NCBI GenBank assembly: GCA_034520945.1
Contig: JAXHNB010000006.1
Location: 922,677 to 986,676, forward strand
Length of the DNA: 64,000 nt
Reading direction: 5' to 3'
Source of the DNA: Trueperaceae bacterium
GTDB lineage: Bacteria > Deinococcota > Deinococci > Deinococcales > Trueperaceae
Positions within the stretch are counted from its first letter, which is position 1, and each line of letters opens with the position of its first letter. Below are positions 14,002 through 50,364 of this stretch, piece by piece. A model generated the notes under the pieces. It was not told the DNA's origin. It did not search any database and worked only from the letters and a program-made list of their open reading frames with translations. Position numbers and translations under genes: made by a program.

Positions 14002-14049
14002 TGGTCGGGGCGGCAGGATTCGAACCTGCGACCCCCTGCTCCCAAAGCA
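14002..14049 (-). repeat. att site: 48-bp duplicate of the 3' part of tRNA-Pro(TGG)
   Basis: Identical to 50288-50335 (TGGTCGGGGCGG...CTCCCAAAGCA). Confidence 0.97.
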
Positions 14050-29818: not shown

Positions 29819-29862
29819 ACGAGCCCCTCGGGCCGAATCACAGAATCCCCTCCAGGCACTAG

Positions 29863-31586: not shown

Positions 31587-31816
31587 TTAAGTGGATCGTC
31601 GAGCCGGAACCCTCCTCCGTGTGCGTCGAAGGGCGCTCAGACGGGCCTGCGCCCCCCTCCACGTGTCCACGGCCGTCCATCCACGCGGCGTTTCGAGCCT
31701 GTCGTGTACGAGGGCTTCACGGTGGCTTTCGGGGGGCTTTGGAACGGCATCGGACTGCTACGCGGGTCCCGTACCCGCCCAAACCGTACGGCTTTCAACC
31801 TGCTAGCGTTGAGTAC

Positions 31817-32476
31817 ATGTCAAGGCCAGTACTTGCCGTCGGATCGATCGCTCTGGCTCTCTTCCTTGTCGCGATTGTCGCGCTGGCGATACAGAAGCCC
31901 GACGTAGGGAATGCGTTGGTAGCAGCGGGCACGCTGGGCCTGGCCAGCGTAGCTTTGGCGCAAGTCTTCTCCGACGCTCGTGCGCGGGAGCTGGATCGTA
32001 GGCTCGCCCTCTCGTGGAAGGACGTCGATCTGACCAGTGACGGCAGCCTCCGGCTCCGGATGGTCGCGAACCTTGGGAATTATCCCGTCGTCGTCCGCTA
32101 CTTCGCCATCGTCAATCGCCAAGGTGAGCGGATCGCCCACAAATTCGGACCCGTTCTCGCCCTACCTCCAGGCCGTGCCGACGGGCACCAAGTGAGCCTT
32201 GCCGCCACGAATCCCCGTTTGCTGGAGGACATGTACGACCGGGTCCCCGCCCAGGTTCTTGAGAAGGAGCGCTGGCTCGATGAAGCTTACAAGGTGCACC
32301 TCGTCATTCAGCACGGAGGGCGGCCGGGCGCCGACATTCACGCGTGCATGCCTGTCGGGCGTGTAATCAAGCAGGGCCTGCAGGTCGCCTTCTCGCACGT
32401 TCGCGTGGACTATGACGTGCGACCACCGAGAGCCCCCCAATCGGTTGATGAGGATGAAGCCATCGGTGCCGGATAG
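31817..32476 (+). CDS. Hypothetical protein with two N-terminal TM helices
   Basis: MSRPVLAVGSIALALFLVAIVALA...LVAAGTLGLASVALAQV; TAGCGT 7 nt upstream. Confidence 0.75.
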   Translation: MSRPVLAVGSIALALFLVAIVALAIQKPDVGNALVAAGTLGLASVALAQVFSDARARELDRRLALSWKDVDLTSDGSLRLRMVANLGNYPVVVRYFAIVNRQGERIAHKFGPVLALPPGRADGHQVSLAATNPRLLEDMYDRVPAQVLEKERWLDEAYKVHLVIQHGGRPGADIHACMPVGRVIKQGLQVAFSHVRVDYDVRPPRAPQSVDEDEAIGAG

Positions 32477-32707
32477 GTCCAGATGGCCACAAGCCGGAAA
32501 CCGGCATCGGACAACCAAATGGTCGGTGGGCGTCTGCATTGGCCTCAGCTTCACCACCTCGCCCTGCCGACGTGGGCAACTCTTTCGCTCGGCCCACAGA
32601 GGGAAGGCGCGAGTGGCGGTGCTGCCGAACTGTAAGGCACCGGAAGCGTCGTTACTGCCGGTTGCGCCTGGCTACACCGTCGCGACATCGCCGACAGTGC
32701 CGCGGGA

Positions 32708-32733
32708 GTGGCGACAAGACGTGTTGTCACAAC
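32708..32733 (+). repeat. Candidate tyrosine-recombinase site (left end of nested cassette)
   Basis: GTGGCGACAA-GACGTG-TTGTCACAAC: inverted 10-bp arms (8/10) with a 6-bp spacer. Confidence 0.55.
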
Positions 32734-32900
32734 CTGGAGACACACGACCTAGCTGGGCAAAACGACAGTGATTGGATCAGTGTTCAAGAAGTGACAGCTC
32801 GACGCCCTTCACAAACAAGGTGACTCAAGCATTGGTGTTTGGTGCTCTACCGCCAAATAGCATGGCCTGATGTGTAGGAGCGGCATGCGAGACTAAGTGC

Positions 32901-35900
32901 GTGCCAGAACCAGGAGCGCTTGCAGCAGCATGGGTCATTGGATCGCTACTGGTGGAAATTGCAAAGGCAGAGGCATCTAGCTTCATCCGAAGGGCCGCGG
33001 GCGCTGGGCCTGTGGAACGTGCGGCGCAGACCACTGGAAAGCACTTTGTTGACAAATACGACGGTGTGGCTGACCAAGTACAGCAGTGGGGGCAATCGAG
33101 GGCGTTCGAGGTACTTCTGGAGCGGGCTCGCCGGGGTGAACCCGTAGACTTGCCGCGAGTTGCCGTAGGAAGCTTCGTCGAGGAATCTGGCTTCGATAGC
33201 GGCGAAAATCGCAGTACGGAGGAAGAGGCCGCAGCGGTGTTGCGTTACTTCCTTGAGGAACTCAAGAGGGAGTTGTACGGGCCTGGAACCGTGGCTGTGA
33301 TGCAACATGTCGATGCTAAGTTTGAAGATCTTGAGCGCCGTACGTTACCTAAGCTTCTCGGCACCGATGAGCAACATGGTGGCCCGATTCCTGGCTACGA
33401 GGAGTGGCAGGTTCGTCTCGACGTAGTGAAACGCATGCTGACGCGTGGGCACCTAGACTCTGCCCAAGAGATGTTGAGTGACATCCAGAAGGAGGTGGAG
33501 GAGAAGGGAATTGACCTTCCAGCGACGCTACGGTTTCGTCTGGACACGAACTTGGGAGCTGTCTACCTCCACAACGACTGTCTTGAACATGCTGCTGAGG
33601 CGTTTGTCAGGGCCTTCGAGCACGAGAATGATTCCGCACGCGCCCTAGCCCATCGCGCCTACGCCGAGCTCATCAGGGATAATCCGGCAGGCGCAAGCGC
33701 GTACGTCGAAATGGCGCTTCGGAAAGACCCCGATCACGACGTTGCGTTGGCGACGTTGGCTCACACCCTTGAAGCACAAGGGCGAGACGCCGAAGCAACA
33801 CAGTTGTGGGACAAGGCGAGTTTGGAGAAGCCTGAACTGCTTGTCGCGCTGTGTTATGTCGAATTATCCAAGAGGGAATACGACCGCGTCGAAGCGAAGC
33901 TAAGCGGTTACCAAGTCGATGCTTGCGAGAGTCCGCGATTGGGGGTTGCCCATGCCCATGCGCTTCTTGGGCCGTTGATTGAGGTCTATAGAGCGGATCA
34001 CCCCCCATCAGATGCCATTCCAGAAGCCCACCTCAGTAGGCTGCGCAATGCTCTGGCCATCCTAGATTCTGTCTTGGAGCCTGACTCGGCGCCACTACCT
34101 CTAGAGTCTCGGGTGCAAGCCCTGTCGCTACGGGGGCTGGCACTAAGTGCGCTTGGACGGCGGGACCAGGCCATTTCAGACTGGGAGCGATTGCTGGCAA
34201 TGCGTCCGAACGATCCCCCGACGCTCCACAATCTCTTCGTGGCGTACCTCTCGGCTGACCGCGAAGGCGCAGCAGAGGGGGCCTTCTTGCAGTTGCCTAC
34301 GGAACAGCGAGATCTGCCTGTGGTACTCGCTTACTGCGAACTTCTGGTTTCGCAAGGAAGGACTGACAAAGCTGCTGGGTGGTTGGCGCCCTTGGAGCGC
34401 GACTCGCCAAATGGCAGTGAGGAGCGCGACTTAATTGCCGCCACCCGAGCGGTGCTAATTGCCGAATTAGAAGGTAATGATGCAGCTGTTGGATTCCTCG
34501 ATGCTGAGCTGCGTCGTTGTGGTGTGTCCGCCGTTGCTTGGGCTTACCTTGGAGAACTCCAAGCTCGGTGTGGCAATTTCGAAGGTGCGATACAAGCGTT
34601 TGACACGGCTCTAGCACGAGCGACCGGAAACACTCGCATGCGTATTGAGCGTGCATTTGCAGGGTTGTTGGCCGCCAGGGGCGAGGTCAGGCGTGCAGCG
34701 GAGATTGCGCAAGGGCTAGCACAGCGCACGAATAGTGAACGCGACTGGGATATGTACGTGTGGTGCCTCTACGAGGCGAGGGAGTTCCCTGCCATTCACC
34801 AGGCCATTGACGACCTCACGCGGCTGGGTGTGCCTCAGACGGCGACGGTGCGTGAGGTCCGGGCCAGATTAGCCATCTTTGAAGGGGACTTGGCATCGGC
34901 ACGATCGCAGTTCGAGGCGTTGGCAAGGGATTATCCGGCTCAAGCGTTCGAAGTTGATGTTGCGATCATTCATGTCCGGTTAGGGAATTTCGAGGCGGCC
35001 GTCAGAGTCGTTAGTCGTATGGAAATGGGATCGCTTGAGGGGCGGGCATTGCTACGTGCGATATCGGTCCTGAACGTTTCAGGGCGCCAAGATCTCGCGC
35101 TGCCATATGCGTATGCCGCCCTCCGAGAGCGCTTCACCGATCCTGAAGTTCACCATCTCTATTTGGCTGTGTTTTTCGCGGCGGAGCGTGAGGGCCGCAT
35201 CCGTGACCCAAAGGTCGTCGAGGTTGGGACGGCTGTACGATTGCAGATGGACCTTGGTGCACGCTGGGTCAGCATACTTTCGGACCCAAAGCCCTATCTC
35301 TTGGGGAGCGAATTTGGTCCGGATCACCCAGCCTCGAAAGCGCTCCTTGGGCTTGCCGTTGGTGACGAGGTCTATCTTCCGAACGGTGAAGCCGATGGCT
35401 CTACCGCAGTTCTCGTAGAGATCCAAGACAAATTCGTTCGGGCCTTCCAGGATGTAATCACAGACTACCGAAGCCGCTTTCCTGAGGACAAGAGCCTACA
35501 GAAGTACACTGCCGACCTAGATAGCCTTAATCCGTTGGGTGGTGTGCTGGAGCATGTCGTTCAGCGAAACGACGTTGTGACGCGCGCGCTTGAGAACTAC
35601 CGCTCGGACGTACTTCTCACAGTTGGTAGCGTCGCAAACGCCACACGGCAATCGTACTTCGCAGTGTGCGAAGCCTTCATTGCTGACAGGGCGCTCGCAC
35701 TCGATTCCACTACTCATGCGCCTTCGGAGCTAAGCTCAGGAGAGGCTCTCGTGGCACATCCCGGAGCCGTGGTCGAACTCACGTCCTTAATGCTGTTGCA
35801 CTGGCTTGGGCTCGGTGAGGCGTTCGCTCGAACACTTGGGCCCTTGTATGTCCCACAAGCCACCGTCGACTTGCTCCGACAAGAACTCCAAGACTTCCGT

Positions 35901-36671
35901 CAAGAGGAGCAGCAGGCGGGGACGTTAACAATGCACGATGGTCGGTTGGTGATGCATGATTCAGACCAGCAAGATCTGCATGCAAGGCGGCGCCTGCGAG
36001 AGGAACTGCTTGAGTTTGTTACCTCGCGCTGCCGGATCGTTCCAGTCCGCGCGCTGACGCGTCGTCCGGCTAATGAGCTAGAAGCGTTGTCAACGCTGTG
36101 GTCGGACAGTGCGTATGGTAGCGTCCTGGCCGCTCAGGAACGTGGCTTGCCTCTGGTGTCCGATGATCGGAAGCTCCGTGCGTGGGCCGAGAACCTGTTC
36201 CAAGTCAGCAATGTGAGTAGTCTGGTACTACTGGGTGTCCTACAGCGCAAACAACAACTCGCGGGCTTCGACTACCATGCGATCGCAATCGAGTTGGCCC
36301 GCATGAACGTTCAAGTACCGTGGATTACCTTCGAAACCTTGCAACGAGCCATGAACGAGAGCGGTTATGTGGTCACAGAGGACGTCCGATGCCTTCTTTC
36401 TGCGTTGGCGCAACCACGTGTGAGTGCTCGATATGCCACCGGCGTCCTCGTGCGGCTCTTGAAGGACGTTTTTGTCGTAGGTCGGCCAGCAATCTCTCGA
36501 CTGGCTTGGGTGGAAGCCTGTCTTGACTGCCTGTGTGAACACAGGACGCTGCAAGACGTGATGCCGCTGGTCAGGGGCTTCATTTCACATCATTTCGAGC
36601 TGCTACCGTTGCATGAACGCGAAGCGGTGAGGCTTGTTGAGGCGTGGTATGCACGCCGCTTGCGTACATAG
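32901..36671 (+). CDS. TPR-GreA/B-C-terminal-PIN protein (predicted conflict/defence effector)
   Basis: Long TPR array; GreAB-C-like VEVGTAVRL...DHPASKALLGLAVGDEV (~35210-35430); PIN-like AVVELTSL...YVPQATV...LPLVSDDRKLR. Confidence 0.85.
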   Translation: MPEPGALAAAWVIGSLLVEIAKAEASSFIRRAAGAGPVERAAQTTGKHFVDKYDGVADQVQQWGQSRAFEVLLERARRGEPVDLPRVAVGSFVEESGFDSGENRSTEEEAAAVLRYFLEELKRELYGPGTVAVMQHVDAKFEDLERRTLPKLLGTDEQHGGPIPGYEEWQVRLDVVKRMLTRGHLDSAQEMLSDIQKEVEEKGIDLPATLRFRLDTNLGAVYLHNDCLEHAAEAFVRAFEHENDSARALAHRAYAELIRDNPAGASAYVEMALRKDPDHDVALATLAHTLEAQGRDAEATQLWDKASLEKPELLVALCYVELSKREYDRVEAKLSGYQVDACESPRLGVAHAHALLGPLIEVYRADHPPSDAIPEAHLSRLRNALAILDSVLEPDSAPLPLESRVQALSLRGLALSALGRRDQAISDWERLLAMRPNDPPTLHNLFVAYLSADREGAAEGAFLQLPTEQRDLPVVLAYCELLVSQGRTDKAAGWLAPLERDSPNGSEERDLIAATRAVLIAELEGNDAAVGFLDAELRRCGVSAVAWAYLGELQARCGNFEGAIQAFDTALARATGNTRMRIERAFAGLLAARGEVRRAAEIAQGLAQRTNSERDWDMYVWCLYEAREFPAIHQAIDDLTRLGVPQTATVREVRARLAIFEGDLASARSQFEALARDYPAQAFEVDVAIIHVRLGNFEAAVRVVSRMEMGSLEGRALLRAISVLNVSGRQDLALPYAYAALRERFTDPEVHHLYLAVFFAAEREGRIRDPKVVEVGTAVRLQMDLGARWVSILSDPKPYLLGSEFGPDHPASKALLGLAVGDEVYLPNGEADGSTAVLVEIQDKFVRAFQDVITDYRSRFPEDKSLQKYTADLDSLNPLGGVLEHVVQRNDVVTRALENYRSDVLLTVGSVANATRQSYFAVCEAFIADRALALDSTTHAPSELSSGEALVAHPGAVVELTSLMLLHWLGLGEAFARTLGPLYVPQATVDLLRQELQDFRQEEQQAGTLTMHDGRLVMHDSDQQDLHARRRLREELLEFVTSRCRIVPVRALTRRPANELEALSTLWSDSAYGSVLAAQERGLPLVSDDRKLRAWAENLFQVSNVSSLVLLGVLQRKQQLAGFDYHAIAIELARMNVQVPWITFETLQRAMNESGYVVTEDVRCLLSALAQPRVSARYATGVLVRLLKDVFVVGRPAISRLAWVEACLDCLCEHRTLQDVMPLVRGFISHHFELLPLHEREAVRLVEAWYARRLRT

Positions 36672-36773
36672 AGCGATTCACCATGCCGTGGCGCTCGTGC
36701 CGCTACGCACTGGGGTCGCGCGTCCTGCGCGTGCTCGACACTGAGCGTGCCGAGTGGCGAGGGGGCGTTCACG

Positions 36774-37502
36774 TCAGTACTCCCAGTTCTCGTGCGCCAG
36801 TGGGCCTTGGTTGAGTTCGTCGCGGCGTAGGCGCCAGTGGGGCATGACTTCGTCCATGATGGCGACGAAGCGGGGGCCGTGGTGGCGTTCTCGGAGGTGG
36901 ACCATCTCGTGTACGAGTACGTATTCGAGGCAGGCTGGTGGCTTCTTGGCGAGTTCGAGGTTCAGCCAGATCCGTTGGGCGTCGGGGTTGCAGCTGCCCC
37001 ATTTGGTCTTCATGCGTTTGATGCCCCAGTGGGCTGGCTGGACGCCAATGGTGGGTTCCCAGGTGGCGATGAGGTCGGGGATGCGTTCGCGTAGGTGGTT
37101 TCGGTACCAGCGGTTGAGGATCTCGCGTCGTTTGGAGGGGTCGGTGTCGGGCCTAACGCGTAGGTGGAGGGTGGTGTTCCCGCGGATCGCAATGGAGGGT
37201 GGTCCCTCGTGGTGGGTGACGGAGAGCCGGTAGCGTTGGCCGAACAGGTAGTGGCTTTCGCCGGTGACCATGTCGCGTTGGGATTGGCGTGCTTGCGTTT
37301 GGAACGCTGTGCGCTGGCGTTTGATCCAGCGTAGGCGTGAAATGATGGCGAGGCGGATGCCGTCGTGGTCGAGGCGGAGGGGGGCGGCGACGCGGACCCT
37401 GCCGTCGGGTGGGTAGACGCCCACGTGGAGGTTCTTGATGTCCTTCTGGACGATCTCCACGGGGATGCCGCGAATCTCGATGTGTCGTCGGTCAGTACTC
37501 AC
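36774..37502 (-). CDS. YgjP/DUF45 (SprT-like) zinc metallohydrolase associated with type I R-M
   Basis: MKTKWGSCN, IWLNLEL, YVLVHEMVH (HEXXH), HGPRF; overlaps the hsdR end. Confidence 0.92.
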   Translation of the reverse strand: MSTDRRHIEIRGIPVEIVQKDIKNLHVGVYPPDGRVRVAAPLRLDHDGIRLAIISRLRWIKRQRTAFQTQARQSQRDMVTGESHYLFGQRYRLSVTHHEGPPSIAIRGNTTLHLRVRPDTDPSKRREILNRWYRNHLRERIPDLIATWEPTIGVQPAHWGIKRMKTKWGSCNPDAQRIWLNLELAKKPPACLEYVLVHEMVHLRERHHGPRFVAIMDEVMPHWRLRRDELNQGPLAHENWEY

Positions 37503-40500
37503 GTTGGTTGGTCACGATCTCGAAGATCTCGTCGGTTCGGTCGGTGTGGGGCCCGAGAGCCGTCTTGATGGCGTTGCGGAGTTTGCGTTGCTTGAAGCGG
37601 TTGCTGCGCCATCCGTCGAGCCTGTTGTCGCGGATGGCCTGGTCGACGGCTAGCGCGATGGGTTCGTTGCCGTCGAGGTTGTCGTAGAGCGCTTGCAGGG
37701 CGGGCGTGGCGATGCGGTCGGGGTACGCCGTGCTGGTGTGGGGTTGTTTTGCGTGCTTGGCGAGCTCCACGATCTTGGCGAGGTATTCCTTGTAGTTGAG
37801 GGCGCGTTGCTTGCGTTGTTGGATGAGGGCGTCGAGGAGTTCGGACATGCGCTCGTAGTACTTGGGGTTGACGGCGGATTCGTCGATGATGAGTTTGCGG
37901 ACGTTGTTCTCGATGGTGGAGGCGACGGCGTCTTCATTTCGTTTGATGCCGTCGGGGAGGGTGTCGATCGCGCCTGGGCCTTGTTGCAGGATGAGGTCAA
38001 CGAGGGTGTGGTCGTCGAAGCGGGATAGCGTTTCGGTTTCTTCGGCGCGGATGTACGTGTCGAGGAGGTGCCGCATGGCGGGTTCGAAGATTTTCATGTC
38101 GACGTAGTCGCCGCTGGCGAGTTTGACCTCTTGGCGGGCGTTTTCGTAGTGCGTGACCTCGTTCTTGAGCGTTCGCGCTTCGTCTTCGCTGTAGCCTGCT
38201 TGCTGCAGTTCGTTGGCGAGGTTGGCGTAGGCGCGCACGAAGGTCGCGACGTGTTTGTAGAGCGCGACGCGTTTGGGTTCGTTGTCCTTGAGTTGCTCCG
38301 CGTTGCCGCTGTCGGTGGCGCAGAAGTAGCGGAGGTAGGCGGCTGTGTCGTGGGGGGTTCGACGGGTTCGCATAGGGCCTTGACGGCTTCGCGGGCTTCC
38401 TCTAGCCGCTCGCGTCCTTGTTGAAGGCGGTCTTCGAGGAGGCCTTCGACGTCTTCGGCGTCGAAGCCGTCGAATGCTTCACCGGTGTAGTCCTGCAGGG
38501 ATTTCTCTAGGGACTTGAAGAGGTCTTTGTAGTCGACGATGTAGCCGACTTCCTTGTCTTCGGTGTGGAGGCGGTTGACGCGGCAGATGGCTTGGAATAG
38601 GCCGTGGTCGCGCATGTGTTTGTCGATGTAGAGGTAGGTGGCGGGTGGGGCGTCGAAGCCTGTGAGGAGTTTGTCGACGACGATCAGCAGTTTCATCTGG
38701 CCGGGCTCGTGGATGAAGCGGTGCTTGACGTCCCGTTCGAACGTGTCGACCTTGTGGACGGCCGTGTCGGGTGGCTCGTCGAAGTGTTCGGCGAGCATGC
38801 GTTGGTAGATCTCGTACTGGTGTAGCTTCTCGGTTTCCCCTTCGCCGGTTTCTTCCCCTTTGATGTGCGCGGTGGAGGGCACGTAGGAGGTGACGATGGC
38901 GCATTTGCCTTTGAGGTCGGTCTGTTGGAACATGTCGAAGAGGCGGCAGGCGGCGTAGATGCTGCCTGCTACGAGCATGGCGTTGCCGTGCCCACTCAGG
39001 AGGCGGTCGCGGGTCGCCATGTCCCAGAGGATGTCGGAGACGATCTTTTCGAGCCGGTCGCGGGAACTTAGGACCTTTTGGAGGGTGCCCCAGCGTTGTT
39101 TGAGTTGGGCGCGGGCGTAGTCGTTGAGGCCTTGCGTCTTGACGTCGAACCACTGGTCGATCTTGTCCTGGGAGGTGATGTGCTGGTCGATGTCGCGCGC
39201 TTCGTAGCGTAGGTCCAGCACGACGCCGTCGTGGACGGCTTCGTCGTACTTGTAGGTGTGGATGTAGGGTCCGAACGTCTCGATGCTCTTGCGTTTGTCG
39301 GTCTTGAGGAGCGGGGTGCCGGTGAACCCAATCAGCGTGGCGCCGGGGAGGAGGGCTTTCATGGCTTCGTGGAGCTTGCCGGATTGGGTGCGGTGGCATT
39401 CGTCGACGAAGACGAACATAGTGCCCTTGGCGCGGAACCCTTTGGGCAGGTGGCTTTGCAGGTCTTGGATGAAGGTGTCTACGTCGCCTTCTTCGGAGGC
39501 GCCGAACTTGTGGATGAGTGAGGCAATCAGCCACTCTTCGTTGTCGTTGAGAACGTTGATCAGGTCGGTGCCGCTCTTGGTGCGGTGGATGTGTTCGTCG
39601 ACGCCCTTGAAGACCGTTTCGATCTGCTGGTCGAGTTCGTTGCGGTCGGTGATGATCAGGACACGCCCGTCGGGCACGTGTTCGCGGATCCACTTGGCGA
39701 GCCACACCATGGTGAGGGACTTGCCGCTTCCTTGCGTGTGCCAGATGATGCCGCCTTCGCGGCGGCGTACGTGTTCTTGGGCAGCTTTCACCCCGAAGTA
39801 CTGATTGTGCCGGCAGGTTTTCTTTGTGCCCGCGTCGAAGACGATGTAGTCGTGAATGACCTCTAGGAGGCGGTCCTTGCGGACGAGGTGATCCAGTCCG
39901 CGTTCCAGCAGGTCCTCGACGTTCGAGGGTTCCTTCCACTGCAGCCAGTACTTCTCTGGGGTTTCGATCACGCCGTAGCGGAGACCTTCGGTGCTATTTC
40001 CCGCCATCAGGAGCTGCGTGGTCGAGAAGAACTCCTGGATGAACTCTTGCTTCTGGTTCCCGAGGGTTTGCCGGACGCCTTCGGCGACGGCTACCGTGGA
40101 GCGCTTGAGTTCCAGGACGCCCAGTGCGATGCCGTTGACGTACAGCACGAGGTCGGGTCGTTTGGTGTGCGTCCCCTCGATGGTGACTTCCTCGGCGATC
40201 GCGAAATCGTTGTTGTCCGGGTTGTTCCAGTCGATCAGCCATATCGTGACGTGCTGTTGTTCGATGGAGGGCTTGACCTTCACGCCGTAGCGCAGCAGGC
40301 TGTAGACCTCGCGATTGGCGTCGTACAGGGTCTTGCTGCCCGAGATTGCGGCGGCTTGATCCAGTTCTCGCAGCGCCTTTTCAAGGATGCGCTCATCGTG
40401 GCCTTGCCGTTGCAACCAGTCACGGAGGAGGCCCTTCTCGATGTTGCGGTTGTCCTCGCGATCCTTCCAGTTGCCGAGGTACTGATAGCCGAGTCGGTCT

Positions 40501-40559
40501 TGGAAGAACCGTAGGGCTTGTTGCTGCGTGCGGTATTCGCGTTGCCCGACGGTGCTCAT
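37492..40559 (-). CDS. hsdR: Type I restriction subunit R, frameshift at G6 tract 38352-38357
   Basis: RPDLVLYVNGI..ELK nuclease motif, WHTQGSGKS, VDECHR, GFTGTP, DKLLTGFDAP, QAICRVNR; one extra C joins EPVEPP to HDTAAYLRYFCA. Confidence 0.95.
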
Positions 40560-41446
40560 TCTGGTGATTCTGCGCGCGCTTGTTGTAGTTCCTTCAGGGT
40601 GCGTCCCCGGGCGTCTTTCCAGGCGCGCCGACCGTTGGCGTTTCCGCCTACGAGGACGCCCGCGGCCGTGGAGGGCGACGTGAACCGGTAGTCTTGCGCA
40701 AACAAGAGGCTGTCGCCATCCGTCACGAGTACGTCGCGGTCTTGGAGTTCAGCCCTTAGCTCCCGCAAGTAGTTGTGGATGGACTTGGTTTCGCTCGTGC
40801 GGGCGCGAGCGCCCTTCATGACGACGAAGCCCTCGGCCACTTCCGTGCCCTTCGCCTCGGCCCCTCGTTCAGCGAGCCGCAGCTCAGCGGAGTCGTCAGT
40901 TGTGTCGGGACCAGGGGCCCGTGCCTGGCTCGCGGCTGCGGAGAATGCGTCGATGCCGAGGACGGGGAAGATCAGCATCATTTCCTCAAGAAACCACTCG
41001 GCGTCGGCTCGGTCGGCCTCGGACAAGGGCGGCGATGCGGGTTGCGTGCCGTTTGCGACCTTCCATTGGTTCGCGTCCCTGGCCAGGCCGACGAGGCGCG
41101 ATTCCAGGTAACGAACGTGAGCCTTGTTCAAGCCTTCATTCGTGCTCGTAAATGCCACCAGCCGCGTCCAGAACTCCTTGCTCGCGACGTGCTGCTTGAT
41201 CCGTTCACGGAGCACGTCTGCCTCGCCCACGTACACTTGGGGCGTTGCCGCTTCGCCTGGGCCGGTCAGGACGTACACGCCAGGTTGGCCCAGCTCGTCG
41301 CGCACCAGGGCCCGGTCGAGCTGCGACCGGCTGGCCACCACGGCCCGGCCGGTCCAGTTCGACTTCTCTACGATGCGCAGCCCGTCGGGCACCCCATCAG
41401 CGAGGAAGATGCGAATCGAGGTGGGGCGCGGGCTGCTCGTCGTCAC
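40556..41446 (-). CDS. GIY-YIG nuclease with C-terminal DUF4357/RAMA-like domain
   Basis: PGVYVL...VYVGEA..LRERIKQH...YLESRL; C-terminal FTSPSTAAGVLVGGNANGRRAWK. Confidence 0.9.
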   Translation of the reverse strand: MTTSSPRPTSIRIFLADGVPDGLRIVEKSNWTGRAVVASRSQLDRALVRDELGQPGVYVLTGPGEAATPQVYVGEADVLRERIKQHVASKEFWTRLVAFTSTNEGLNKAHVRYLESRLVGLARDANQWKVANGTQPASPPLSEADRADAEWFLEEMMLIFPVLGIDAFSAAASQARAPGPDTTDDSAELRLAERGAEAKGTEVAEGFVVMKGARARTSETKSIHNYLRELRAELQDRDVLVTDGDSLLFAQDYRFTSPSTAAGVLVGGNANGRRAWKDARGRTLKELQQARAESPE

Positions 41447-42708
41447 GCCGCTACCTCCGGCTTTACCAAGCGGGTCCTCCCGGTCAACAACTGCTGCATC
41501 ATGCCCTGCTTGATCTGGCGCGTCTTGTCGCGGCGACGTTCTAGAGCCTCGATTTCAGCATCCATGTCGGTAAGCACTTCAGCGATCGCGGCTTGTTCTT
41601 CCAGATCAGGCATGGGAAGTTCAAGGTTCTTGACGTCGCGGCTACCAATAGCCGGGTAGTTAGAACCGGCAATGATCTTGTTGATTTGTTGATTAGCTGT
41701 GCTGCCAAAGAAGTGGGAATAGATGAAGCCTGGATGCGCATGACTTGGATCAGACCTCACAACGGTGAAACCCGTTGAACATATGGCATTTTGCAACTGC
41801 CCATCGAATAGAAGGTGTGATTTTAGGTTCGGCCGTACTGTGGATACCATGATGTCATCACGACGGAGGATTCGTCTTGCCCGTACGGGGGCAGAACGGA
41901 ATCGCTCGGTGGACCAGCCGCGGAGCTTACCTTCTTCTACGTCTTCCAGCGAAATGTAATGGAACGTGTAATGCGGAGGAGTGTTTTCACCAAGGTTCTC
42001 GGGGTCAATCTCAGCAACGTTCGCCAACCGCTTTGTCTTCCACTCGCCCGTAAAACCCGGTAGGCGGGTCTGGCCGGTGAGGAGTTGTTGCATGGTGGCC
42101 TGTTTTATGGCGCGCTTCTTGGCGATCAGGCGGTCGAGGGATTCGATCAGCGCGTCCGCATCCGACAGGGTGGTGGCGATGGCGCGTTGTTCGCGGAGCG
42201 GCGGAACCGGAAGTCTAACCGTCTTGATCCCACCCAAGGATATGAATGGTTGCGCTTGGCCACTCTTCGGCCATATTCCTGGTTCTCCAGTCGCAATGAA
42301 TAGAAACTTGACATCCATCTCGCCTACAACTGGCCTAATCCAGATGGTGTTCTTTATGGCCGTCCACTTGCCGCTGGCTAGCCATGTCCTACCGCATTTG
42401 GCTCCAATCGCACTTACAATCACCGCAGTCGCATCGTGGTCGTACCAACTTACGTATCCGTCCGGCCCAGACGCGCTAAACGCCTGGTATCCATGATCTC
42501 GATAAGCCGCTTTCGTGATAGACGTATTTCCCCAGTCAAATTCCGAGGTTTGGGACAACGTCTTCACCTCCCAATCCTCTGGAATAGTCCCAACCTCGGT
42601 TCGCGTATAGCCCGGCGAAACCTCGCTTTGCGCGCTTTCTGACGCACGCATATGATACGCAGCGGCAGTGCCCCGCACGGCTTCCAATGCTTGACTACGT
42701 TCCGACAT
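41443..42708 (-). CDS. hsdS: Type I R-M specificity subunit
   Basis: IPEDWEV, two lower-GC TRDs and two conserved helices PPLREQRAIA...MQQLLTG and PDLEEQAAIA...MQQLLTG. Confidence 0.95.
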   Translation of the reverse strand: MSERSQALEAVRGTAAAYHMRASESAQSEVSPGYTRTEVGTIPEDWEVKTLSQTSEFDWGNTSITKAAYRDHGYQAFSASGPDGYVSWYDHDATAVIVSAIGAKCGRTWLASGKWTAIKNTIWIRPVVGEMDVKFLFIATGEPGIWPKSGQAQPFISLGGIKTVRLPVPPLREQRAIATTLSDADALIESLDRLIAKKRAIKQATMQQLLTGQTRLPGFTGEWKTKRLANVAEIDPENLGENTPPHYTFHYISLEDVEEGKLRGWSTERFRSAPVRARRILRRDDIMVSTVRPNLKSHLLFDGQLQNAICSTGFTVVRSDPSHAHPGFIYSHFFGSTANQQINKIIAGSNYPAIGSRDVKNLELPMPDLEEQAAIAEVLTDMDAEIEALERRRDKTRQIKQGMMQQLLTGRTRLVKPEVAA

Positions 42709-45163
42709 CCGCCCGCACTTCCATCTTCTCCAAGTGGCCAGCTACCCTTCTGGCTAGCTCTTCGACTTCGTGCTCGATGGCGGGCAGCGGTTCCACGTAG
42801 CGTTCTTCGAGTTCCCGCACACGCCCTGCGAGCTGGTTGGTTATGCGTTCAACCTCGGCGTCTATAGCGGCGCGGATGTCTTCCAACCACTTGTCATCCA
42901 CGGTCAGGGTCTTGATCTCGTCCTCGGTCAGTTCGCCGTAGCGTGCCAGCACAGTCTGGTTGAGCTCGGCCTCGGCTTGCTTCATGGCCTTCTTGGCGCT
43001 GGCTTCGGCGTCCAGCAGCTTCTTGCACTGCTTGAGGGCGGTGATTTCGTCGTCACTGTCCAGCTCCCCATCGAGGGCTTTGAGACGCTTTGGGATCTCT
43101 GTTTTGGTCACGTTGCCCTTGTCGTTCTTGATTTCGCTCAGTAGGTCCTCTTCGCCGTCCTGTTCTTCAATGAACTCCTCCAGCTCGCGGGTGGCGGTCT
43201 CGTGCGCGGCTTGGAGTTCTTCGATTTGGGCCTGTTCGCTTGCGAAGTAGCGGGCGATGACCAGCTCGGGCGGGATCAGGTCCAGCTTGTACTTCCGGGC
43301 TTTCTTGCCGTTGCCGATGGTGAGGTCGGGCTCTTCCTTGATCTTGCGTTCCTTGTTCTCGATTACGCCGCGGGGCCGGGCTGCTTCCTGCCAGCCGTCG
43401 GCGGCGATGAGGTAGACATCGTCTTGCATGACCTCGGCCCAGTAGTCCATCAACCGTTGGTAGACGGCGTAGCGGTCCAGCAGGGGTACGTCAGTGAAGC
43501 GCTGGAGCAGGTCTTGGGATAGCGCGTGGATCACCTCTCGTGGCTTGTTGTCCTGCTCCAGGGCCAGCAAGGCCGCTCTGTGGGCGGTTTGCCACTGATC
43601 GATGACCTGGGTGACGGTGTCCGCGAAGGCCTTGAAGGCGGGATGCGCCAGCACCGTGGGTTTCACCTGCTGAGTCGCTACGCGTGGCTCAAGGTAGCCG
43701 TGCCGGCCGTTGTCCTGGAAGAGCGCGTCTCGTAGGCCGGGCAGTACAGTCCAGTAGGGCTGGAGCGCGTCCACGTCGTGCTTGGGGATGCCGCCGTTCA
43801 GGTGGGCGTACAGGTCGTGCAGGTCTTCGGGTTCGCTGGTGTCGATGTAGCGTGGGATGTTGAGGTTGTAGTCGTTGGCGTCACTGGCGATTTCGGCGGG
43901 CGGCACCATGCGGGAATAGCGTGGCACTTCGCGCTGGTGGTTGAACGTGTCGACGATCTTGTGGATGTCGCGGGAGCGTAGGCGGTTCTTATTGCCGTCC
44001 TTCATGAATTCGTGGCTGGCGTCGATCATGAAGATGCCGCCGGTTTCCGGATCCTGGCGGTTGCTGGCGTGTTCCTTGTCGATGACGAGGATGCAGGCGG
44101 GGATGCCGGTACCGTAGAACAGGTTGGGTGGCAGCCCGATGATGCCTTTGATCAGCCCGCGTTGGACCAGGTTGCGGCGGATGTCGGCCTCTTTGTGGCC
44201 GCGGAACAGTACGCCGTGGGGCAGGATGATGGCGCCTTTGCCCGTGGATTTTAGGGACTTGATGAGGTGCAGGAGGAAGGCGTAGTCGCCGTTCTTGGCC
44301 GGGGGAATGCCGTACTCGAAGCGGTTGAACTCCTCGTTGGCTGGGTCCAGGCCGTTGGTCCATGACTTGGCGGAGAAGGGTGGGTTCGCGACAGCGAAGT
44401 CGAAGGCCTTGAGGCTGCCGTTCGGGTTCTTGAAGTACGGCGCCGAGAGGGTGTTGCCTCGCCATAGTTCAGCCGTCGGGTAGTCGTGGAGAATCATGTT
44501 CATCTTCGCCAGCGCCCAGGTGGCGTTGTCGTTTTCTTGGCCGTAGATGCTCATGCCCTTGGACGCTTCGTTGGCTGCGCGCAGTAGGAGCGAGCCCGAT
44601 CCGCAGGTGGGGTCGTAGAGGGTGTGGTCTTGGCGGGTGTGTGGGCCGACGCCGACCACTTGGGCGATCACGCGGGAGACTTCCGCGGGCGTGTAGAACT
44701 GGCCCTTGCTTTTGCCGGCTTCGGTGGCGAAGTGGCGCATGAGGTATTCGTAGGCGTCGCCTAGGAGGTCGTCTCCATCCGTGCGGTTTGCGCCGAGGTC
44801 GAGTTGGTCGAAGATGGACACGAGCTTGGAGAGGCGGTCTTGCATGTCTTTGCCGGCGCCGAGTTTGGTTTCGTCGTTAAAGTCGGCTTGGTCGATGACG
44901 CCCTTGAGGTCGTTGGCTTCGGCGAGCCGGCCGATGATCTTGTTGATCTTGTCGCCGATCTCCTTGTCGCCCTTGAGGGCGACCATGTCCTGGAAGCTGC
45001 CTCCTTCCGGGACTTCGATCAGCGAGTCCCGCTTGTCGGAGACGTACTTCATGAACAGAAGGGTCAGGATGTAGTCCTTGTACTGCGAGGCGTCCATGCC
45101 GCCGCGCAGCTCGTCGCAGCTTTGCCAGAGGGAACTGTAGAGTTGGGACTTCTTGATGGCCAT
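42695..45163 (-). CDS. hsdM: Type I R-M N6-adenine methyltransferase subunit
   Basis: MAIKKSQLYSSLWQSCDELRGGMDASQY, GQFYTP, YDPTCGSG, ANPPF, LPHGVLFRG. Confidence 0.97.
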   Translation of the reverse strand: MAIKKSQLYSSLWQSCDELRGGMDASQYKDYILTLLFMKYVSDKRDSLIEVPEGGSFQDMVALKGDKEIGDKINKIIGRLAEANDLKGVIDQADFNDETKLGAGKDMQDRLSKLVSIFDQLDLGANRTDGDDLLGDAYEYLMRHFATEAGKSKGQFYTPAEVSRVIAQVVGVGPHTRQDHTLYDPTCGSGSLLLRAANEASKGMSIYGQENDNATWALAKMNMILHDYPTAELWRGNTLSAPYFKNPNGSLKAFDFAVANPPFSAKSWTNGLDPANEEFNRFEYGIPPAKNGDYAFLLHLIKSLKSTGKGAIILPHGVLFRGHKEADIRRNLVQRGLIKGIIGLPPNLFYGTGIPACILVIDKEHASNRQDPETGGIFMIDASHEFMKDGNKNRLRSRDIHKIVDTFNHQREVPRYSRMVPPAEIASDANDYNLNIPRYIDTSEPEDLHDLYAHLNGGIPKHDVDALQPYWTVLPGLRDALFQDNGRHGYLEPRVATQQVKPTVLAHPAFKAFADTVTQVIDQWQTAHRAALLALEQDNKPREVIHALSQDLLQRFTDVPLLDRYAVYQRLMDYWAEVMQDDVYLIAADGWQEAARPRGVIENKERKIKEEPDLTIGNGKKARKYKLDLIPPELVIARYFASEQAQIEELQAAHETATRELEEFIEEQDGEEDLLSEIKNDKGNVTKTEIPKRLKALDGELDSDDEITALKQCKKLLDAEASAKKAMKQAEAELNQTVLARYGELTEDEIKTLTVDDKWLEDIRAAIDAEVERITNQLAGRVRELEERYVEPLPAIEHEVEELARRVAGHLEKMEVRADVGT

Positions 45164-45482
45164 CGTTTTGGCACCCCAAGCCAGGCGTGTGTGAAATCGG
45201 TCGCCGGTTTCTACCCAAGATCGCATGCAGTTGGCGCAGCCGTCTATGGCTTTCTGGATCGGCAGTATCACTCTGCAATGCGCCGAGTCCGCCAAGCAGC
45301 GATGGTGGTGCCCATATTGCTGGGGCCAGCTCAAGTAATTGGAGTTCCCGCTGCCGCGTGGACCATGTGACTGCTTCTTGTAGGTCCGAGACGGGAAGGG
45401 CTGGCTGAGCTTCGCCCTAGCTGGCTGGCTATCGGGAGCACACTGGGCCGCCTTGCCGTAACGCAAGGTCTGGTCCTGCTGC

Positions 45483-46538
45483 TTACAGTTGCCGGGCCAA
45501 CGACGCTCCGAACGACAGCATCACCGCCCACATCACAGCTGAAGTCAGGCAACTGCTGCTATTCCTTGCGGATTGCGCGGCTTGAACTCCTTGCGTTGCG
45601 GTACTCGCCTTAAGAACACCTTCAATGGCGCGGGCGTGCTTCAGCCGATTCTTTTGCTCTACGGTTGGTTCCTCGCGGACCATGGATTCAGCCAGCCGCC
45701 TATCGTACTTTGCCATTTCAAGCGGCGTAATGCCATGCGAGCCCCTTGCCGATACATCTGCGCCTGCGAGCAATAGAGAACCAATGACAGACAAATTGTG
45801 GTCGTCTCCGGGCATCGAAGTCGCAGCGACGTGCAACGCGGTTTGACCTTGATCGTTCCGAAGCTCAAGTCCACATTGCTTGCTGAGGTCTACGATCGCT
45901 TGCAGCACATTCAGATTACCAAATCCGACACCGGCAACCAACATGAGTGGTGTGAATCCGTTTGAATCGTAGCTGCAGGGATCAATGCCGGATACCGCGA
46001 GCTCCCTGATTGCTGGGGAAAGGTCTGTTACCTGCAAGCCCTGCGTTCCGATAGCGCTCGCCGCAATTAAGGTGTGATAGGGCGTGGTTGCAGGTTTCGG
46101 CCTACCGAGGCCCGCATTGGCATGCACGAGAGATTGCACGGCGTCTGCTGTGTACGCAAAGTACAGAGCAGTTTGGCCGCCTTCATTTACCGCAGTTGGA
46201 TTTGCACCAGCGTCAAGGAGCGCTTGGACTCCATGGGAATTTCCCGTATTTGCCGCTGCACAGTGCAGTGCCGAGAACCCGCGCTTGTACCCCGACATTG
46301 CTGGGGCTGTCGAATCGTTGGGATCCGCGCCTGCTTCAAGGAGGATCTCCAGTACTTCTGGGTTTGGATTCGTCTCCGCTGCGTGCATAAGGACCGTGTA
46401 TTGCGTTTGGGGATCGCGAGCCTTCACATCCGCCCCCGCACTAATAAGATCGCGGATGGTGTCGTCGTTACCCATTTTGGCAGCTTCAAGCAGTCGCCTC
46501 GAAAGCAGTTGCCTCGAATTCTGATCCTGCTCACTCAT
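45483..46538 (-). CDS. Ankyrin-repeat protein with C-terminal hydrophobic tail
   Basis: Repeated TVLMHAA/SALHCAA/GQTALY/GFTPLM/GQTALHVAA and LL.AGAD motifs; AAGGAGG RBS. Confidence 0.9.
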   Translation of the reverse strand: MSEQDQNSRQLLSRRLLEAAKMGNDDTIRDLISAGADVKARDPQTQYTVLMHAAETNPNPEVLEILLEAGADPNDSTAPAMSGYKRGFSALHCAAANTGNSHGVQALLDAGANPTAVNEGGQTALYFAYTADAVQSLVHANAGLGRPKPATTPYHTLIAASAIGTQGLQVTDLSPAIRELAVSGIDPCSYDSNGFTPLMLVAGVGFGNLNVLQAIVDLSKQCGLELRNDQGQTALHVAATSMPGDDHNLSVIGSLLLAGADVSARGSHGITPLEMAKYDRRLAESMVREEPTVEQKNRLKHARAIEGVLKASTATQGVQAAQSARNSSSCLTSAVMWAVMLSFGASLARQL

Positions 46539-46722
46539 TGCTGCCTCCTTCGGCGCGCGCGTCCACGATGACACGTGTGCACCTGCGCTAGTGGCGTTCC
46601 AGTGCATCCGCAACGTTCTCGACGTGGTCGTCGGCACGCACAGCAAGGTTCAACACACCGTTTTCGCGGCCAGCGAGACCTAGGCAGGAGCATCAGCTGT
46701 GCAGGCATGCGATTATGCGACC

Positions 46723-46917
46723 GTGGCGCCTAAGCGGCAAGATGATCACGAGGATTCGAGTCTTCGTTCGCGTCTGGAAAAGGGCGAGGGAAAACAGCTC
46801 AACGTGGTGATTCCTGCCGATCTTCACAAGCGCTTGAAGGTGCAGTCCGTTCTGGAAGACGCTTCAATGTCCGAGATCGTTGCGGATGCGCTTCGGAAGC
46901 ATTTGAACGAGTACTGA
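46723..46917 (+). CDS. ParG-like ribbon-helix-helix protein
   Basis: KQLNVVIPADLHKRLKVQSVLEDASMSEIVADALRKHL. Confidence 0.8.
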   Translation: MAPKRQDDHEDSSLRSRLEKGEGKQLNVVIPADLHKRLKVQSVLEDASMSEIVADALRKHLNEY

Positions 46918-47077
46918 GAGCTGTGTCCCAGGCGAATGAGGCAATCGTCGCCAACATTCCTAGGCACCCCATGTCACAACATGTATAGTCACATAGGAGG
47001 CGGGACGTACCGCTCTCAAAAGTTGACCCCGCGCCAGGCCTGGTAACCGACGACGCGGGGGAGAGGCAGGACCCCTC

Positions 47078-48085
47078 ATGCGTGAGAATAGCGCCGGAAT
47101 CTCTAGTTCGCGAGCGGCGGTCGGCGGAGACGCCGTAGGCAGTGTCTTGGATCGTCAGTTGGGAACGCTCGCTCTACGCGCTCGTGACTGGGCGGGTCTG
47201 AGTGATGGCGACCTGAAGCGCCGCGCTGCTGCCGCTGCCAACGCACGCGACGTCGCGGAATTGTGGGGCCTCGTCGAGGCTCACTTGGTCACGAAGGGGG
47301 GCGCCGGAGTCCGCATCAGCGCTCACACGCTGCGCAATTACAGGCGTGGCCTACTAGATCTCGTTGTTGCGTGGCAGGGCGAGAATCTCCTGCGGCCGAC
47401 TAGAGATGCGGCGGACCTGTATGTCACCCACCTTGGCGAGCGCTTGGCGCCCGGCACGGTGCGGGTGAAGATCGCGGCCGCGCGAGCGCTCTACAAGGCC
47501 CTTCGGTGGGCGGGGGCGACGGAACTCCGGCCCTTCGAGGATGTCGTCTTGCTACGCGATCCTACAGCGGCGTGGGACAAGCGGCAGCCCTACACTGGCG
47601 AGGAGGTCAGCCGCCTGTTGGCCGTCGCAGAGCCCACGGACCGCGTTCTGGTGCTTCTCGGCGCCCACGCCGGCCTCCGCGTCAGTGAGATCGTCGCCCT
47701 CGCTTGGGGCGACGTCGATCTTGACGACGCTGTGTTGCGAGTATCACGCGGCAAGGGCGGCAAGGCAGGCGTCGTCCACCTCAGCGGGACGACGGTCGAT
47801 GCGTTGAACGCGATCGCGGCCACTCGCCGCCAGCGCGGCTTCGTCATGCCCTTCCGGAGCACGCAGCGGGCGTACCCGCGGATTCAGCGCCTGGCTGTGC
47901 GCGCTGGACTGGGGCGCGGCAAGGGGCTTCACGCCCTACGCCACTACTGCGGGACCAGGGTTGCGACGGAGCAGGGGTTGGAGGCGGCGCAGCAGCACCT
48001 TCGGCATTCGAACCTGGCGACGACGCAGACGTACGCGAAGTGGCGAGAGCGTATTCGGATCAAGGAGATGGTGGCGCAATGGTGA
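47078..48085 (+). CDS. XerC-like tyrosine recombinase (resolvase type, no arm-binding domain)
   Basis: SAHTLRNY, AGLRVSE, GKGGK, HALRH, LRHSNLATTQTY (R-K-H-R-H-Y intact). Confidence 0.93.
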   Translation: MRENSAGISSSRAAVGGDAVGSVLDRQLGTLALRARDWAGLSDGDLKRRAAAAANARDVAELWGLVEAHLVTKGGAGVRISAHTLRNYRRGLLDLVVAWQGENLLRPTRDAADLYVTHLGERLAPGTVRVKIAAARALYKALRWAGATELRPFEDVVLLRDPTAAWDKRQPYTGEEVSRLLAVAEPTDRVLVLLGAHAGLRVSEIVALAWGDVDLDDAVLRVSRGKGGKAGVVHLSGTTVDALNAIAATRRQRGFVMPFRSTQRAYPRIQRLAVRAGLGRGKGLHALRHYCGTRVATEQGLEAAQQHLRHSNLATTQTYAKWRERIRIKEMVAQW

Positions 48086-48104
48086 GAAGTTTGGTTGTCA
48101 CAAC
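48079..48104 (+). repeat. Candidate tyrosine-recombinase site (right end of nested cassette)
   Basis: ATGGTGAGAA-GTTTGG-TTGTCACAAC overlapping the recombinase stop; right arm identical to 32724-32733. Confidence 0.55.
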
Positions 48105-48227
48105 GGAACGTGGCCAGTTCAAAGAGGTGCGCGACGAACCGTCTTCCGTGGCGTCGTTCGGTGGAGGGGTGCATAGGGGACGTCCCACCCCCGGCCATTT
48201 ACATGACAGGGGCAGGAGGGTGACGTC

Positions 48228-49454
48228 GTGAGTCGCTACATCCGTGTCGACCGTGGCTCGGGGAGTCGTAGCGGCCAGCTGCTCCGTCATGAGACAGATC
48301 CGAAGCGCTGGCAGGTGCGCGTGTACTTGGGACGTGATCCCGGAGGACGCAAGCGGTACGTGACCAAGACCGTCCGCGGGACGAAGCGCGATGCCGAGGC
48401 TGCGCTGATCGATCTCCTTCGGGAGAAGAATGGTGGCAGCCTCGCCCCGCGCACCCAGATCACGTTGGCCGAGCTCGCTGACGAATGGCTGCGGCACAAG
48501 GTGCGCGATGTGGGACCTCGTACTCTGGGTGGCTACCGCGAGGCTCTGCAGCGGTATGTGCTTCCCAGTCTCGGGATGACCAAGATCGTCGACTTGTCGT
48601 TGAGAGACGTCGATTGGCTCATTGGGCTCATGCTGTCTGGCGAGCTACCCCAGCCCGAAGGTCCGTACGGCATCTCCGGCGAGCCGCTGGGTGGGCGCAC
48701 GGTTCGCCAGGCTCACTCCGCGCTGTCACAGGCGTTGGCGCTGGCGATTCGCTGGGGCTGGTTGGCCCACAACCCGGCAAGGGAGGCGACCTTACCTCCA
48801 TACAATCCGAAACGCCCGACACCGCTTTCACCGGACGAGCGTCGGCGATTCCTAAAAGCATGCAACAGCAGCTTCTACGGTGGCCTGTACCACCTGCTGA
48901 TCGACACGGGCCTTCGACCGGGGGAGGCCATGGCTTTGAAATGGGAAGATGTCGATCTGGCGCGAAAGTCCATCCGAGCAGTGCAAAGCGTTACGCGGGG
49001 GTCCGCGGGCGAGCCGGTCTTCACAGATCCAAAGACTCCTCGGAGCCGGCGGACAATCCCCATGCTTGATGGGCTGCGCGATCGGCTGCTTGCACATCGC
49101 GAATGGCAGAGGAGCCACGGGCTTGATGCCACTGGCCTCGTGTTCACGACATCGGAAGGTCGCCCGTTGCGCCCGTGGACGTTCACGCGCCGGGACTTGA
49201 AGCGGACAGCGACGCGCGCGGGCATTACGAAGACCGTGACAATGTACGTGCTCCGCCACACGTTTGCCACGCTCCACCTTGCAACGGGGACGCCGCTCAA
49301 GGGCGTGTCTGACCTCATGGGCCATTCAACGATTCAGCAGACGGCCGATACGTACATGCACGCCGACGTCTCGATGACCGAGGATTGGATGGCACGCTTC
49401 GGGAAGACCCTCGACGCATGGGACGACCTGGCAGAGCGAACGCCCCCCAACTAG
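48228..49454 (+). CDS. Site-specific tyrosine integrase with N-terminal arm-binding domain
   Basis: WQVRVYLGRDP.GRKRY...GTKRDAE; TGLRPGE, PKT, LRHTFAT, MGHSTIQQTADTY; ~830 bp from the tRNA att. Confidence 0.95.
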   Translation: MSRYIRVDRGSGSRSGQLLRHETDPKRWQVRVYLGRDPGGRKRYVTKTVRGTKRDAEAALIDLLREKNGGSLAPRTQITLAELADEWLRHKVRDVGPRTLGGYREALQRYVLPSLGMTKIVDLSLRDVDWLIGLMLSGELPQPEGPYGISGEPLGGRTVRQAHSALSQALALAIRWGWLAHNPAREATLPPYNPKRPTPLSPDERRRFLKACNSSFYGGLYHLLIDTGLRPGEAMALKWEDVDLARKSIRAVQSVTRGSAGEPVFTDPKTPRSRRTIPMLDGLRDRLLAHREWQRSHGLDATGLVFTTSEGRPLRPWTFTRRDLKRTATRAGITKTVTMYVLRHTFATLHLATGTPLKGVSDLMGHSTIQQTADTYMHADVSMTEDWMARFGKTLDAWDDLAERTPPN

Positions 49455-50287: not shown

Positions 50288-50364
50288 TGGTCGGGGCGGC
50301 AGGATTCGAACCTGCGACCCCCTGCTCCCAAAGCAGGTGCGCTACCAGGCTGCGCTACGCCCCG
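50288..50364 (-). tRNA. tRNA-Pro(TGG), integration target
   Basis: Cloverleaf, anticodon loop TTTGGGA, encoded CCA; upstream TTGACA-17-GAGACT. Confidence 0.98.

Follow-up and report, generated by a model that had tools for sequence, protein, structure and literature searches.

A Xer-like recombinase gene with a putative palindromic site at its stop codon, and a candidate defence cassette beside it, in a Trueperaceae tRNA-Pro island

Chromosomal Xer recombination belongs to a housekeeping context and takes place at dif, a 28-bp (11-6-11) site close to the replication terminus. Xer modules of a single recombinase with a gene-linked site are also known, XerH/difH being one of them. XerS/difSL of streptococci and lactococci, as PMC2731167 describes it, is of the same kind, with a single Xer recombinase and a site beside its own gene. 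The dif (pdif) modules of Acinetobacter plasmids and IMEX are accessory blocks with a short Xer-type site at either end, made up of inverted arms and a 6-bp centre (PMC7399989, PMC6449649). For Deinococcota, the portions of the literature covered by our search define no dif/Xer site: none is given for Deinococcus in the part of PMC9764985 that was available, and Deinococcus and Thermus are unmentioned in the main text of PMC3025954. Our subject is P0001, a Xer-like tyrosine recombinase encoded in a 64-kb stretch of DNA from a Trueperaceae genome (the window, here and below), together with a block of 15.4 kb that includes a type I restriction-modification (R-M) system and ends at the recombinase gene. 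Like XerS/difSL, P0001 has a probable palindromic target beside its gene, which begins within the final codons and is conserved along with them.

The recombinase and the palindrome at its stop codon

The P0001 gene (47078..48085, + strand, 335 aa) ends in a TGA at 48083-48085 which falls within the left arm of the right-hand site (48079..48109, + strand), so that the site starts 4 nt ahead of the stop. It is composed of ATGGTGAGAA (48079-48088), GTTTGG (48089-48094) and TTGTCACAAC (48095-48104), and it stands within a longer imperfect palindrome, GTTTGGTTG-TCA-CAACGGAAC (48089-48109). Upstream of the recombinase is the gene of a small ribbon-helix-helix (RHH)-like protein (46699..46917, + strand), with weak Pfam matches to RHH_10, ParG and Omega, the RHH_10 match (E 0.0057) being under the Pfam cut-off. 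In our opinion, the best explanation of this arrangement is that the RHH gene, P0001 and the palindromic site overlapping the stop form a small self-contained site-specific recombination module. We think it likely, with good confidence, that the palindrome functions in cis in this module, as the site of its recombinase.

P0001 has the domains Phage_integrase (PF00589, E 9e-23) and Phage_int_SAM_1 (PF02899, E 4e-8), and tyrosine-recombinase boxes I and II can be made out by eye (GLRVSE; HALRHY ... LRHS ... TQTY). Its best PDB matches are XerC-like, XerA and XerD. The NCBIfam scores are 85.8 for XerA against a cut-off of 220, 73.2 for XerC (cut-off 335), 63.5 for XerD (330) and 32.6 for XerS (267); models of integron integrases give 48.7 against 265 and 29.7 against 435, and there is no cassette array. 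By curated scores, P0001 is outside XerC, XerD, XerA, XerS and IntI.

Homologues of ~45-54% identity are widespread in Trueperaceae and Deinococcus. Five such loci were annotated, four of them amid housekeeping genes (SMC, aspS, dnaJ, yebC) and one, L045, amid metabolic and transport genes. In PLSDB, 20 Deinococcus plasmids, some of just 8-23 kb, encode homologues of 40-47% identity. We infer that replicon maintenance is the role of the P0001 family as a whole. Members of a closer subfamily (60-86% identity; P0004-P0013) are found in metagenomes only; the contigs that encode its 60-83% members P0004-P0012 have lengths of 2,737, 11,833, 12,289 and 6,770 bp. A 94%-identical homologue of the RHH protein is encoded on a contig of 2737 bp, and the 83% recombinase homologue P0004 on an equally long one; given this common length of 2,737 bp, the two genes are presumably linked.

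The closest homologue with readable DNA is locus L064 on a metagenome contig, with 86% amino acid identity over residues 146-335; the N-terminal half of its recombinase is replaced by an IS3-type insertion. L064 carries the identical 11-mer GTTGTCACAAC 8 nt past the stop, at the same distance as in the window. The two loci are 80.6% identical over 588 nt, while the last 85 nt, from 48020 to the motif end, contain 3 mismatches (~96%). BLAST homology then stops at 48106, with scattered matches only over the next ~25 nt. A different open reading frame (ORF) follows the motif in L064; its available 49 residues have no Pfam match and agree at 7/17 positions with the N-terminus of P0002, the island integrase. 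In L064, the sole close relative available, the right site is conserved with the gene, and the conserved segment has its edge there. A gene-linked site may be a habit of the P0001 family.

The integrase P0002 (48228..49454, + strand, 408 aa; Phage_integrase plus an arm-binding domain) is encoded next to the tRNA, outside the proposed cassette. Upstream of P0002-like integrases (34-60% identity) at 12 other loci there is no Xer-like gene in the DNA covered (<=1.5 kb, sometimes much less), so the RHH-recombinase module is not a usual backbone of P0002-type integrases. A sister island of the same genome, at tRNA-Val on contig C5 (11200-37100; loci L137 and L138), has no Xer-like gene either. Moreover, recombinase homologues of 64-86% identity adjoin integrase-like genes that are only 26-41% identical, hence recombinase and integrase have different histories and are joined at the site. 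Since it is found before very different integrases, and is absent from the DNA covered at the P0002-like loci and from the C5 island, the RHH-recombinase-site unit is a module of its own. Its cargo side varies, which fits a mobile unit ending at the right site, and also an accessory maintenance module that is exchanged between islands.

The second copy of the motif and a proposed origin of the block

The 11-mer occurs in the 64-kb window at 32723-32733 and 48094-48104, exactly and on the + strand, and no third copy is found there with 1 mismatch tolerated. The left site (32708..32733, + strand), a direct copy of the right site 15,371 bp upstream of it, consists of GTGGCGACAA (32708-32717), GACGTG (32718-32723) and TTGTCACAAC (32724-32733). 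It is located 168 nt 5' of the start of the TPR-PIN gene, in a gap of 424 nt between that gene and an ORF at 31820-32476. Left and right site are identical at 20/27 positions. A further half-site, ATGTCACAAC at 46971-46980, matches the 11-mer at 9/11 positions over 46970-46980. It is contained in the spacer of a promoter-like site for the recombinase (46961..46989, + strand; TAGGCA-17-TATAGT), which is a consensus match only. All of this, i.e. the positions of the 11-mer, the arm-6-arm layouts and the half-site at 46971, reads as the preliminary description of this DNA had it.

The register given in that description is doubtful. It is unlikely that the proposed arm-spacer-arm frame represents the crossover region, because its two 'spacers' disagree at 4/6 positions, while the identity shared by both sites, which is where strand exchange is expected, is the 11-mer. 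Two of the three L064 mismatches are the middle bases of the proposed 'spacer' (TT -> CC). If strands are exchanged inside the shared 11-mer, the 'homology-independent exchange' that had been invoked as one option is unnecessary. A reading as hairpins or terminators was dropped: fold z-scores were -0.88, 0.21, -0.44 and -1.19, and the search for terminator-like sites gave none.

How much weight can the repeat bear? In the 3.47-Mb genome the 11-mer has 3 copies, the third of which falls within a housekeeping ORF; the two block ends, in direct orientation, are its only intergenic copies. The earlier caveat that an 11-bp match could arise by chance was nevertheless justified: the intergenic DNA of the island (7.5 kb) contains ~12 unrelated same-strand repeat pairs of at least 11 nt, against ~7 expected, so the repeat by itself is at chance level and is not evidence. 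What exceeds chance is the similarity on its left side together with the conservation of the motif in L064. The 16 nt to the left of both copies match at 9/16 positions (empirical p 0.0066 against all registers in the island), and this is the top value for the 24 flanks that the twelve 11-mer pairs of the island provide. Among 127 other genomes of the family there was no exact match to GGTTGTCACAACGG, and matches with 1 mismatch were as frequent as for the reversed control; viral contigs contained neither a match to the site nor relatives of P0001 or P0002.

We propose the following history of the block, tentatively and with slightly more doubt than belief, as the likeliest single reading of the pattern. 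P0001 would bind half-sites containing TGTCACAAC and recombine at the 11-bp identity block GTTGTCACAAC. The block 32734-48104, comprising TPR-PIN, type I R-M, DUF4357 and YgjP-like genes, ankyrin, RHH and P0001, would have entered the tRNA-Pro island as a circle, just 5' of the integrase gene. Exchange between the site of the circle and a similar resident site would have produced the two directly repeated hybrid sites that now bound the block, the left site being a putative boundary. Later excision of the block by P0001 may be possible, and the copy in the promoter spacer (46971-46980) could serve autoregulation of the recombinase. Regarding the earlier idea of a separately mobile defence module, the conserved right site in L064 and the left-flank match speak in its favour, while a recombinase without such cargo in another genome of the same genus (G005) speaks against it.

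Several observations weigh against this history, besides the chance level of the repeat. To the right of the two copies, only 4/16 flanking positions agree, and the longer palindrome of the right site is missing from the left site. Among homologues, the motif at the stop that the preliminary description had suggested looking for is present in the closest readable one, L064, and absent from 85/87 distinct 3' flanks, the exceptions being the window and L064; the flanks without it mostly belong to ~50%-identical genes in housekeeping settings. In a comparison of 32 other loci, too, it was absent. No further instance of the cassette was found in the family genomes or by searches for homologues of the TPR-PIN and ankyrin proteins. 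Related islands (127 family genomes; 12 P0002-like loci) yielded no empty site, and the left flank 31577-32900 gave chance-size matches only in the 127 genomes.

Evidence for movement was also sought in four runs of the source sample, as assembled contigs only, which drop rare forms. Contigs bridge the left site at 32723 (X1 32286-36831; X2 31439-34162) and the right one at 48094 (X1 45074-50055), and among the joints listed from these contigs there is none from 32733 to 48105, as would be expected of an empty site, and no circle junction. The contig data neither support nor refute excision. In X2 there is a break within the right site, one contig ending and another beginning at 48090 and 48098, at ~8x depth; the X1 contig is continuous there.

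The locus in G005 deserves separate consideration. Its recombinase homologue (64-74% identity) is frameshifted and is followed by GTTGCCACTAG, an 8/11 match to the motif. The order is RHH (33% identity), broken recombinase, an integrase remnant (26-33% to P0002, E 1e-18) and tRNA-Asn, with none of the window's other island genes and no defence cargo; no second copy of at least 11 nt of the degenerate post-stop site occurs within 21 kb. Given this trio without defence genes, the recombinase is not tied to the cargo seen in the window and may be part of an integration module of the island instead. The RHH-recombinase module stands directly ahead of an integrase-type gene in up to three islands, hence a cassette that inserts freely would have to show a target preference. 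All this weighs against the cassette history. An alternative that we regard as less probable is that the right site alone has a function. RHH, P0001 and this site would serve the maintenance of the island, the left copy would be chance or a relic and mark no boundary, and the defence genes would be ordinary cargo. The module could then resolve multimers of an excised, replicating circle that encodes its own primase, or control excision by the integrase. Such an arrangement, with the site beside the gene, is that of single-recombinase Xer and plasmid resolution systems. Along with the recurrence of RHH, recombinase, integrase and tRNA in G005 around wholly different cargo, the 20 Deinococcus plasmid records (40-47%) and the housekeeping neighbourhoods (SMC, aspS, dnaJ) suit dimer resolution, and the island does encode a primase/D5 helicase. 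Palindromes just past the stop are present in distant homologues too: L019 (G027) has three tandem TCCTGCA-6-TGCAGGA (7-6-7) units there, and L017 (G056) and L046 (Meiothermus granaticius) have TTCACGA...TCGTGAA. Further, similar cargo (type I R-M) sits in the C5 sister island without such a recombinase, and 11-mer repeats are at chance frequency in the island.

On the contrary, once the site is defined by its conservation, simple base-composition arithmetic gives an expectation of ~0.006 for a second exact same-strand copy in the 36-kb island. A chance left copy also has to be reconciled with its matching flank (p 0.0066) and with its location in the intergenic gap where the first cassette gene begins. 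In addition, the integrases nearest P0002 lack the module, which therefore is not a stable backbone gene.

The shorter motif TGTCACAAC, whose clustering here we count in favour of the cassette history, could also have a different function. This 9-mer has 4 copies genome-wide, 3 of them in this region, on the same strand and all intergenic, one of the three inside the spacer of the recombinase's predicted promoter; in the intergenic DNA of the island, three or four 9-mers occur three times, which is near random expectation. The copies could be operators through which RHH or P0001 regulates the + strand units of TPR-PIN, recombinase and integrase. Indeed, all three are 98-168 nt 5' of + strand starts (32901, 47078 and 48228), one of them in the promoter spacer, and RHH, at 94% identity in the nearest relative where the recombinase has 83%, is more conserved than any other gene of the module, with faint Omega- and ParG-type matches. 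Omega repressors bind heptads resembling TCACA. However, the distance that is kept constant is the one from stop to motif (8 nt in the window and in L064), not that from motif to the next start, which is 124 nt in the window and ~33 nt in L064. The search for promoter-like sites gave none close to the left copy, the region upstream of the RHH gene has no copy, and an operator would not explain why homology breaks off so sharply where the motif ends. We find this operator role improbable.

The left flank admits one more scenario, in which it preserves what is left of another, decayed Xer-like gene and of the site belonging to it, so that the sites end two successive modules acquired by tandem accretion. 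The left arm TGGCGACAAG of the left site resembles the 3' end of the recombinase gene, TGGTGAGAAG, and a box-I-like LALSWKDVDL is encoded on the same strand at 32004-32031. The subfamily profile scores 2.1 bits there, and 9/600 random genome windows score as high or higher, which is suggestive at best. Against this scenario, the score is tiny, the profile finds no box II, box I and the site are 719 nt apart as compared with 400 nt in the intact gene, and the ORF at 31820-32476 has predicted N-terminal hydrophobic helices and no Pfam match. This decayed gene seems to us very improbable.

Genes of the block and the enclosing island

The first gene of the block encodes a TPR / PIN-TPR-GreABC protein of 1256 aa (32901..36671, + strand; Pfam PF20698 at E 4.8e-21 and TPR families), whose homologues, with <=27% identity, occur in 6/363 other genomes of the phylum. 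On the - strand follow a YgjP-like metallopeptidase (36774..37502; PF01863, E 1.2e-62) and the type I R-M operon, recognised by Pfam and PADLOC: hsdR (37492..40559), a DUF4357 protein inside the operon which is the PADLOC candidate PDC-S14 (40556..41446), a single hsdS (41443..42708) and hsdM (42695..45466). An ankyrin-repeat protein (45483..46646, - strand; Pfam) comes last before the RHH gene; among 24 other proteins returned at E<=1e-20 none exceeds 34% identity to it. A 21-nt inverted repeat (46601-46621 and 46872-46892; 90% complementary, 250 nt apart) brackets the ankyrin start and the 3' part of the RHH gene. The preliminary list of genes holds for TPR-GreAB-PIN, type I R-M, YgjP-like, ankyrin and recombinase, and weakly for RHH. 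A GIY-YIG gene could not be confirmed; the protein in question matches DUF4357 and PADLOC PDC-S14 only.

The hsdR gene is in two frames, with positions 1-749 and 745-1031 of the PADLOC REase_I profile on two ORFs that overlap (38094-38373) and are split at a run of six G (G6, 38352-38357). One extra G is present in this run in short-read contigs from the source sample, namely in the single covering contig of X1 and at 13.6 of 30.5 depth in X2. The extra G would place both parts in one frame, and it reflects either a homopolymer error of the assembly or variation in run length.

The block is nested, as had been stated, in an island at tRNA-Pro. The tRNA-Pro (TGG) gene (50288..50364, - strand), the integration target of the island, carries a 48-nt sequence (50288-50335) that is repeated directly and with 100% identity at the distal end (14002..14049), where it corresponds to the 3' part of the tRNA. 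These repeats define an island of 36.3 kb (14002-50335), with GC of 0.58-0.66 between them and ~0.70 outside. The word 'nested' is correct because the repeats, the low GC and the integrase P0002 enclose the block. Tandem islands were considered and rejected, the 48-nt repeat being present as two copies only. A primase/D5-type (helicase) gene (14831-17503) lies at the distal end; nearer the tRNA the order is a transposase cluster (27.6-31.6 kb), the block, P0002 and the tRNA.

Some further features are recorded here. The transposase cluster (27600-31576) is a graveyard with IS4/5-type fragments (27776-28413) and one partial (28376-29107) and one full (30114-31493) DDE_Tnp_1_4; comparison with G005 puts the element ends at ~29861 and 31576, and 300 nt (28451-28750) are 97% identical to 30837-31136. 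Directly 3' of the integrase stop is a hairpin with 24-nt arms (49450-49502; 92% complementary), which resemble 28377-28416 at the end of an IS4/5-type fragment and are possibly a solo terminal-repeat pair. Just beyond the distal end of the island a 991-aa NB-ARC/AAA + TPR (STAND-type) protein is encoded (10992-13967), adjoined by a tRNA cluster of Leu, His, Arg and Gly (10261-10783). The C5 sister island contains Prim-Pol, a 718-aa protein, type I R-M with Mrr, a 1670-aa AAA protein and an HTH gene; its integrase is 55% identical to P0002, and one stretch is 84-98% protein-identical to window 18264-19892.

Significance and comparison with known systems

For the gain and exchange of multi-gene systems by defence islands, the usual explanation is vague 'hot spots'. 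A recombinase-site pair that delimits TPR-PIN and type I R-M would offer a testable mechanism of modular exchange, and self-encoded Xer-type modules would be extended to Deinococcota. If the right site alone is real, it still provides a well-defined recombinase-site pair for biochemistry. One may speculate further, though we would give this little credit, that RHH-Xer-like modules of Deinococcota are a cargo-docking system, which loads circular defence blocks at the palindrome overlapping the stop, always just 5' of the integrase of a tRNA-targeting island. In that case islands with unrelated integrases and tRNA targets could swap whole defence cassettes, in an integron- or dif-module-like working for multi-gene defence blocks with a self-encoded Xer.

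Where does the locus stand among the known systems? Unlike XerS/difSL, P0001 scores far below the Xer cut-offs, is on a mobile island and has a second site 15 kb away. We know of no FtsK link for P0001. The contrast with chromosomal Xer/dif is in the place of the gene, a tRNA-Pro island, and in a site without a match to a dif core; a search of the genome with a dif consensus gave no convincing canonical dif.

Phase-variable type I R-M systems combine a linked tyrosine recombinase with several hsdS genes or half-genes that have inverted repeats. The window shares with them a Xer-like recombinase near a type I R-M operon. However, there is one hsdS, no hsdS inverted repeat is among the 25 longest repeats, and hsdM, ankyrin and RHH separate the recombinase from hsdS. 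An integron differs as well, given the lack of an IntI-type score and of a cassette array.

With integrative elements the locus shares a recombinase gene at one end beside one of two short direct repeats, cargo in between, and nesting. Yet the N-domain of P0001 is SAM_1 (Xer-type), without an arm-binding domain; the target would be a spot just 5' of another island's integrase rather than a tRNA or gene end; and the partner is an RHH protein, with no recognised excisionase.

Finally, as in dif modules and IMEX, two sites (20/27 identity), which here are candidates, flank an accessory block, in this case of 15.4 kb. Those modules, as far as the cited accounts go, rely on the XerC/XerD of the host, have no recombinase of their own and carry sites that resemble the host dif, whereas this block encodes P0001 and its sites are direct repeats sharing 11 bp. 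The locus is thus known in kind, as a self-encoded Xer-like module with a gene-linked site and, if the pair is real, also as something like a dif module or a small integrative element; it is its own recombinase that sets the block apart from dif modules.

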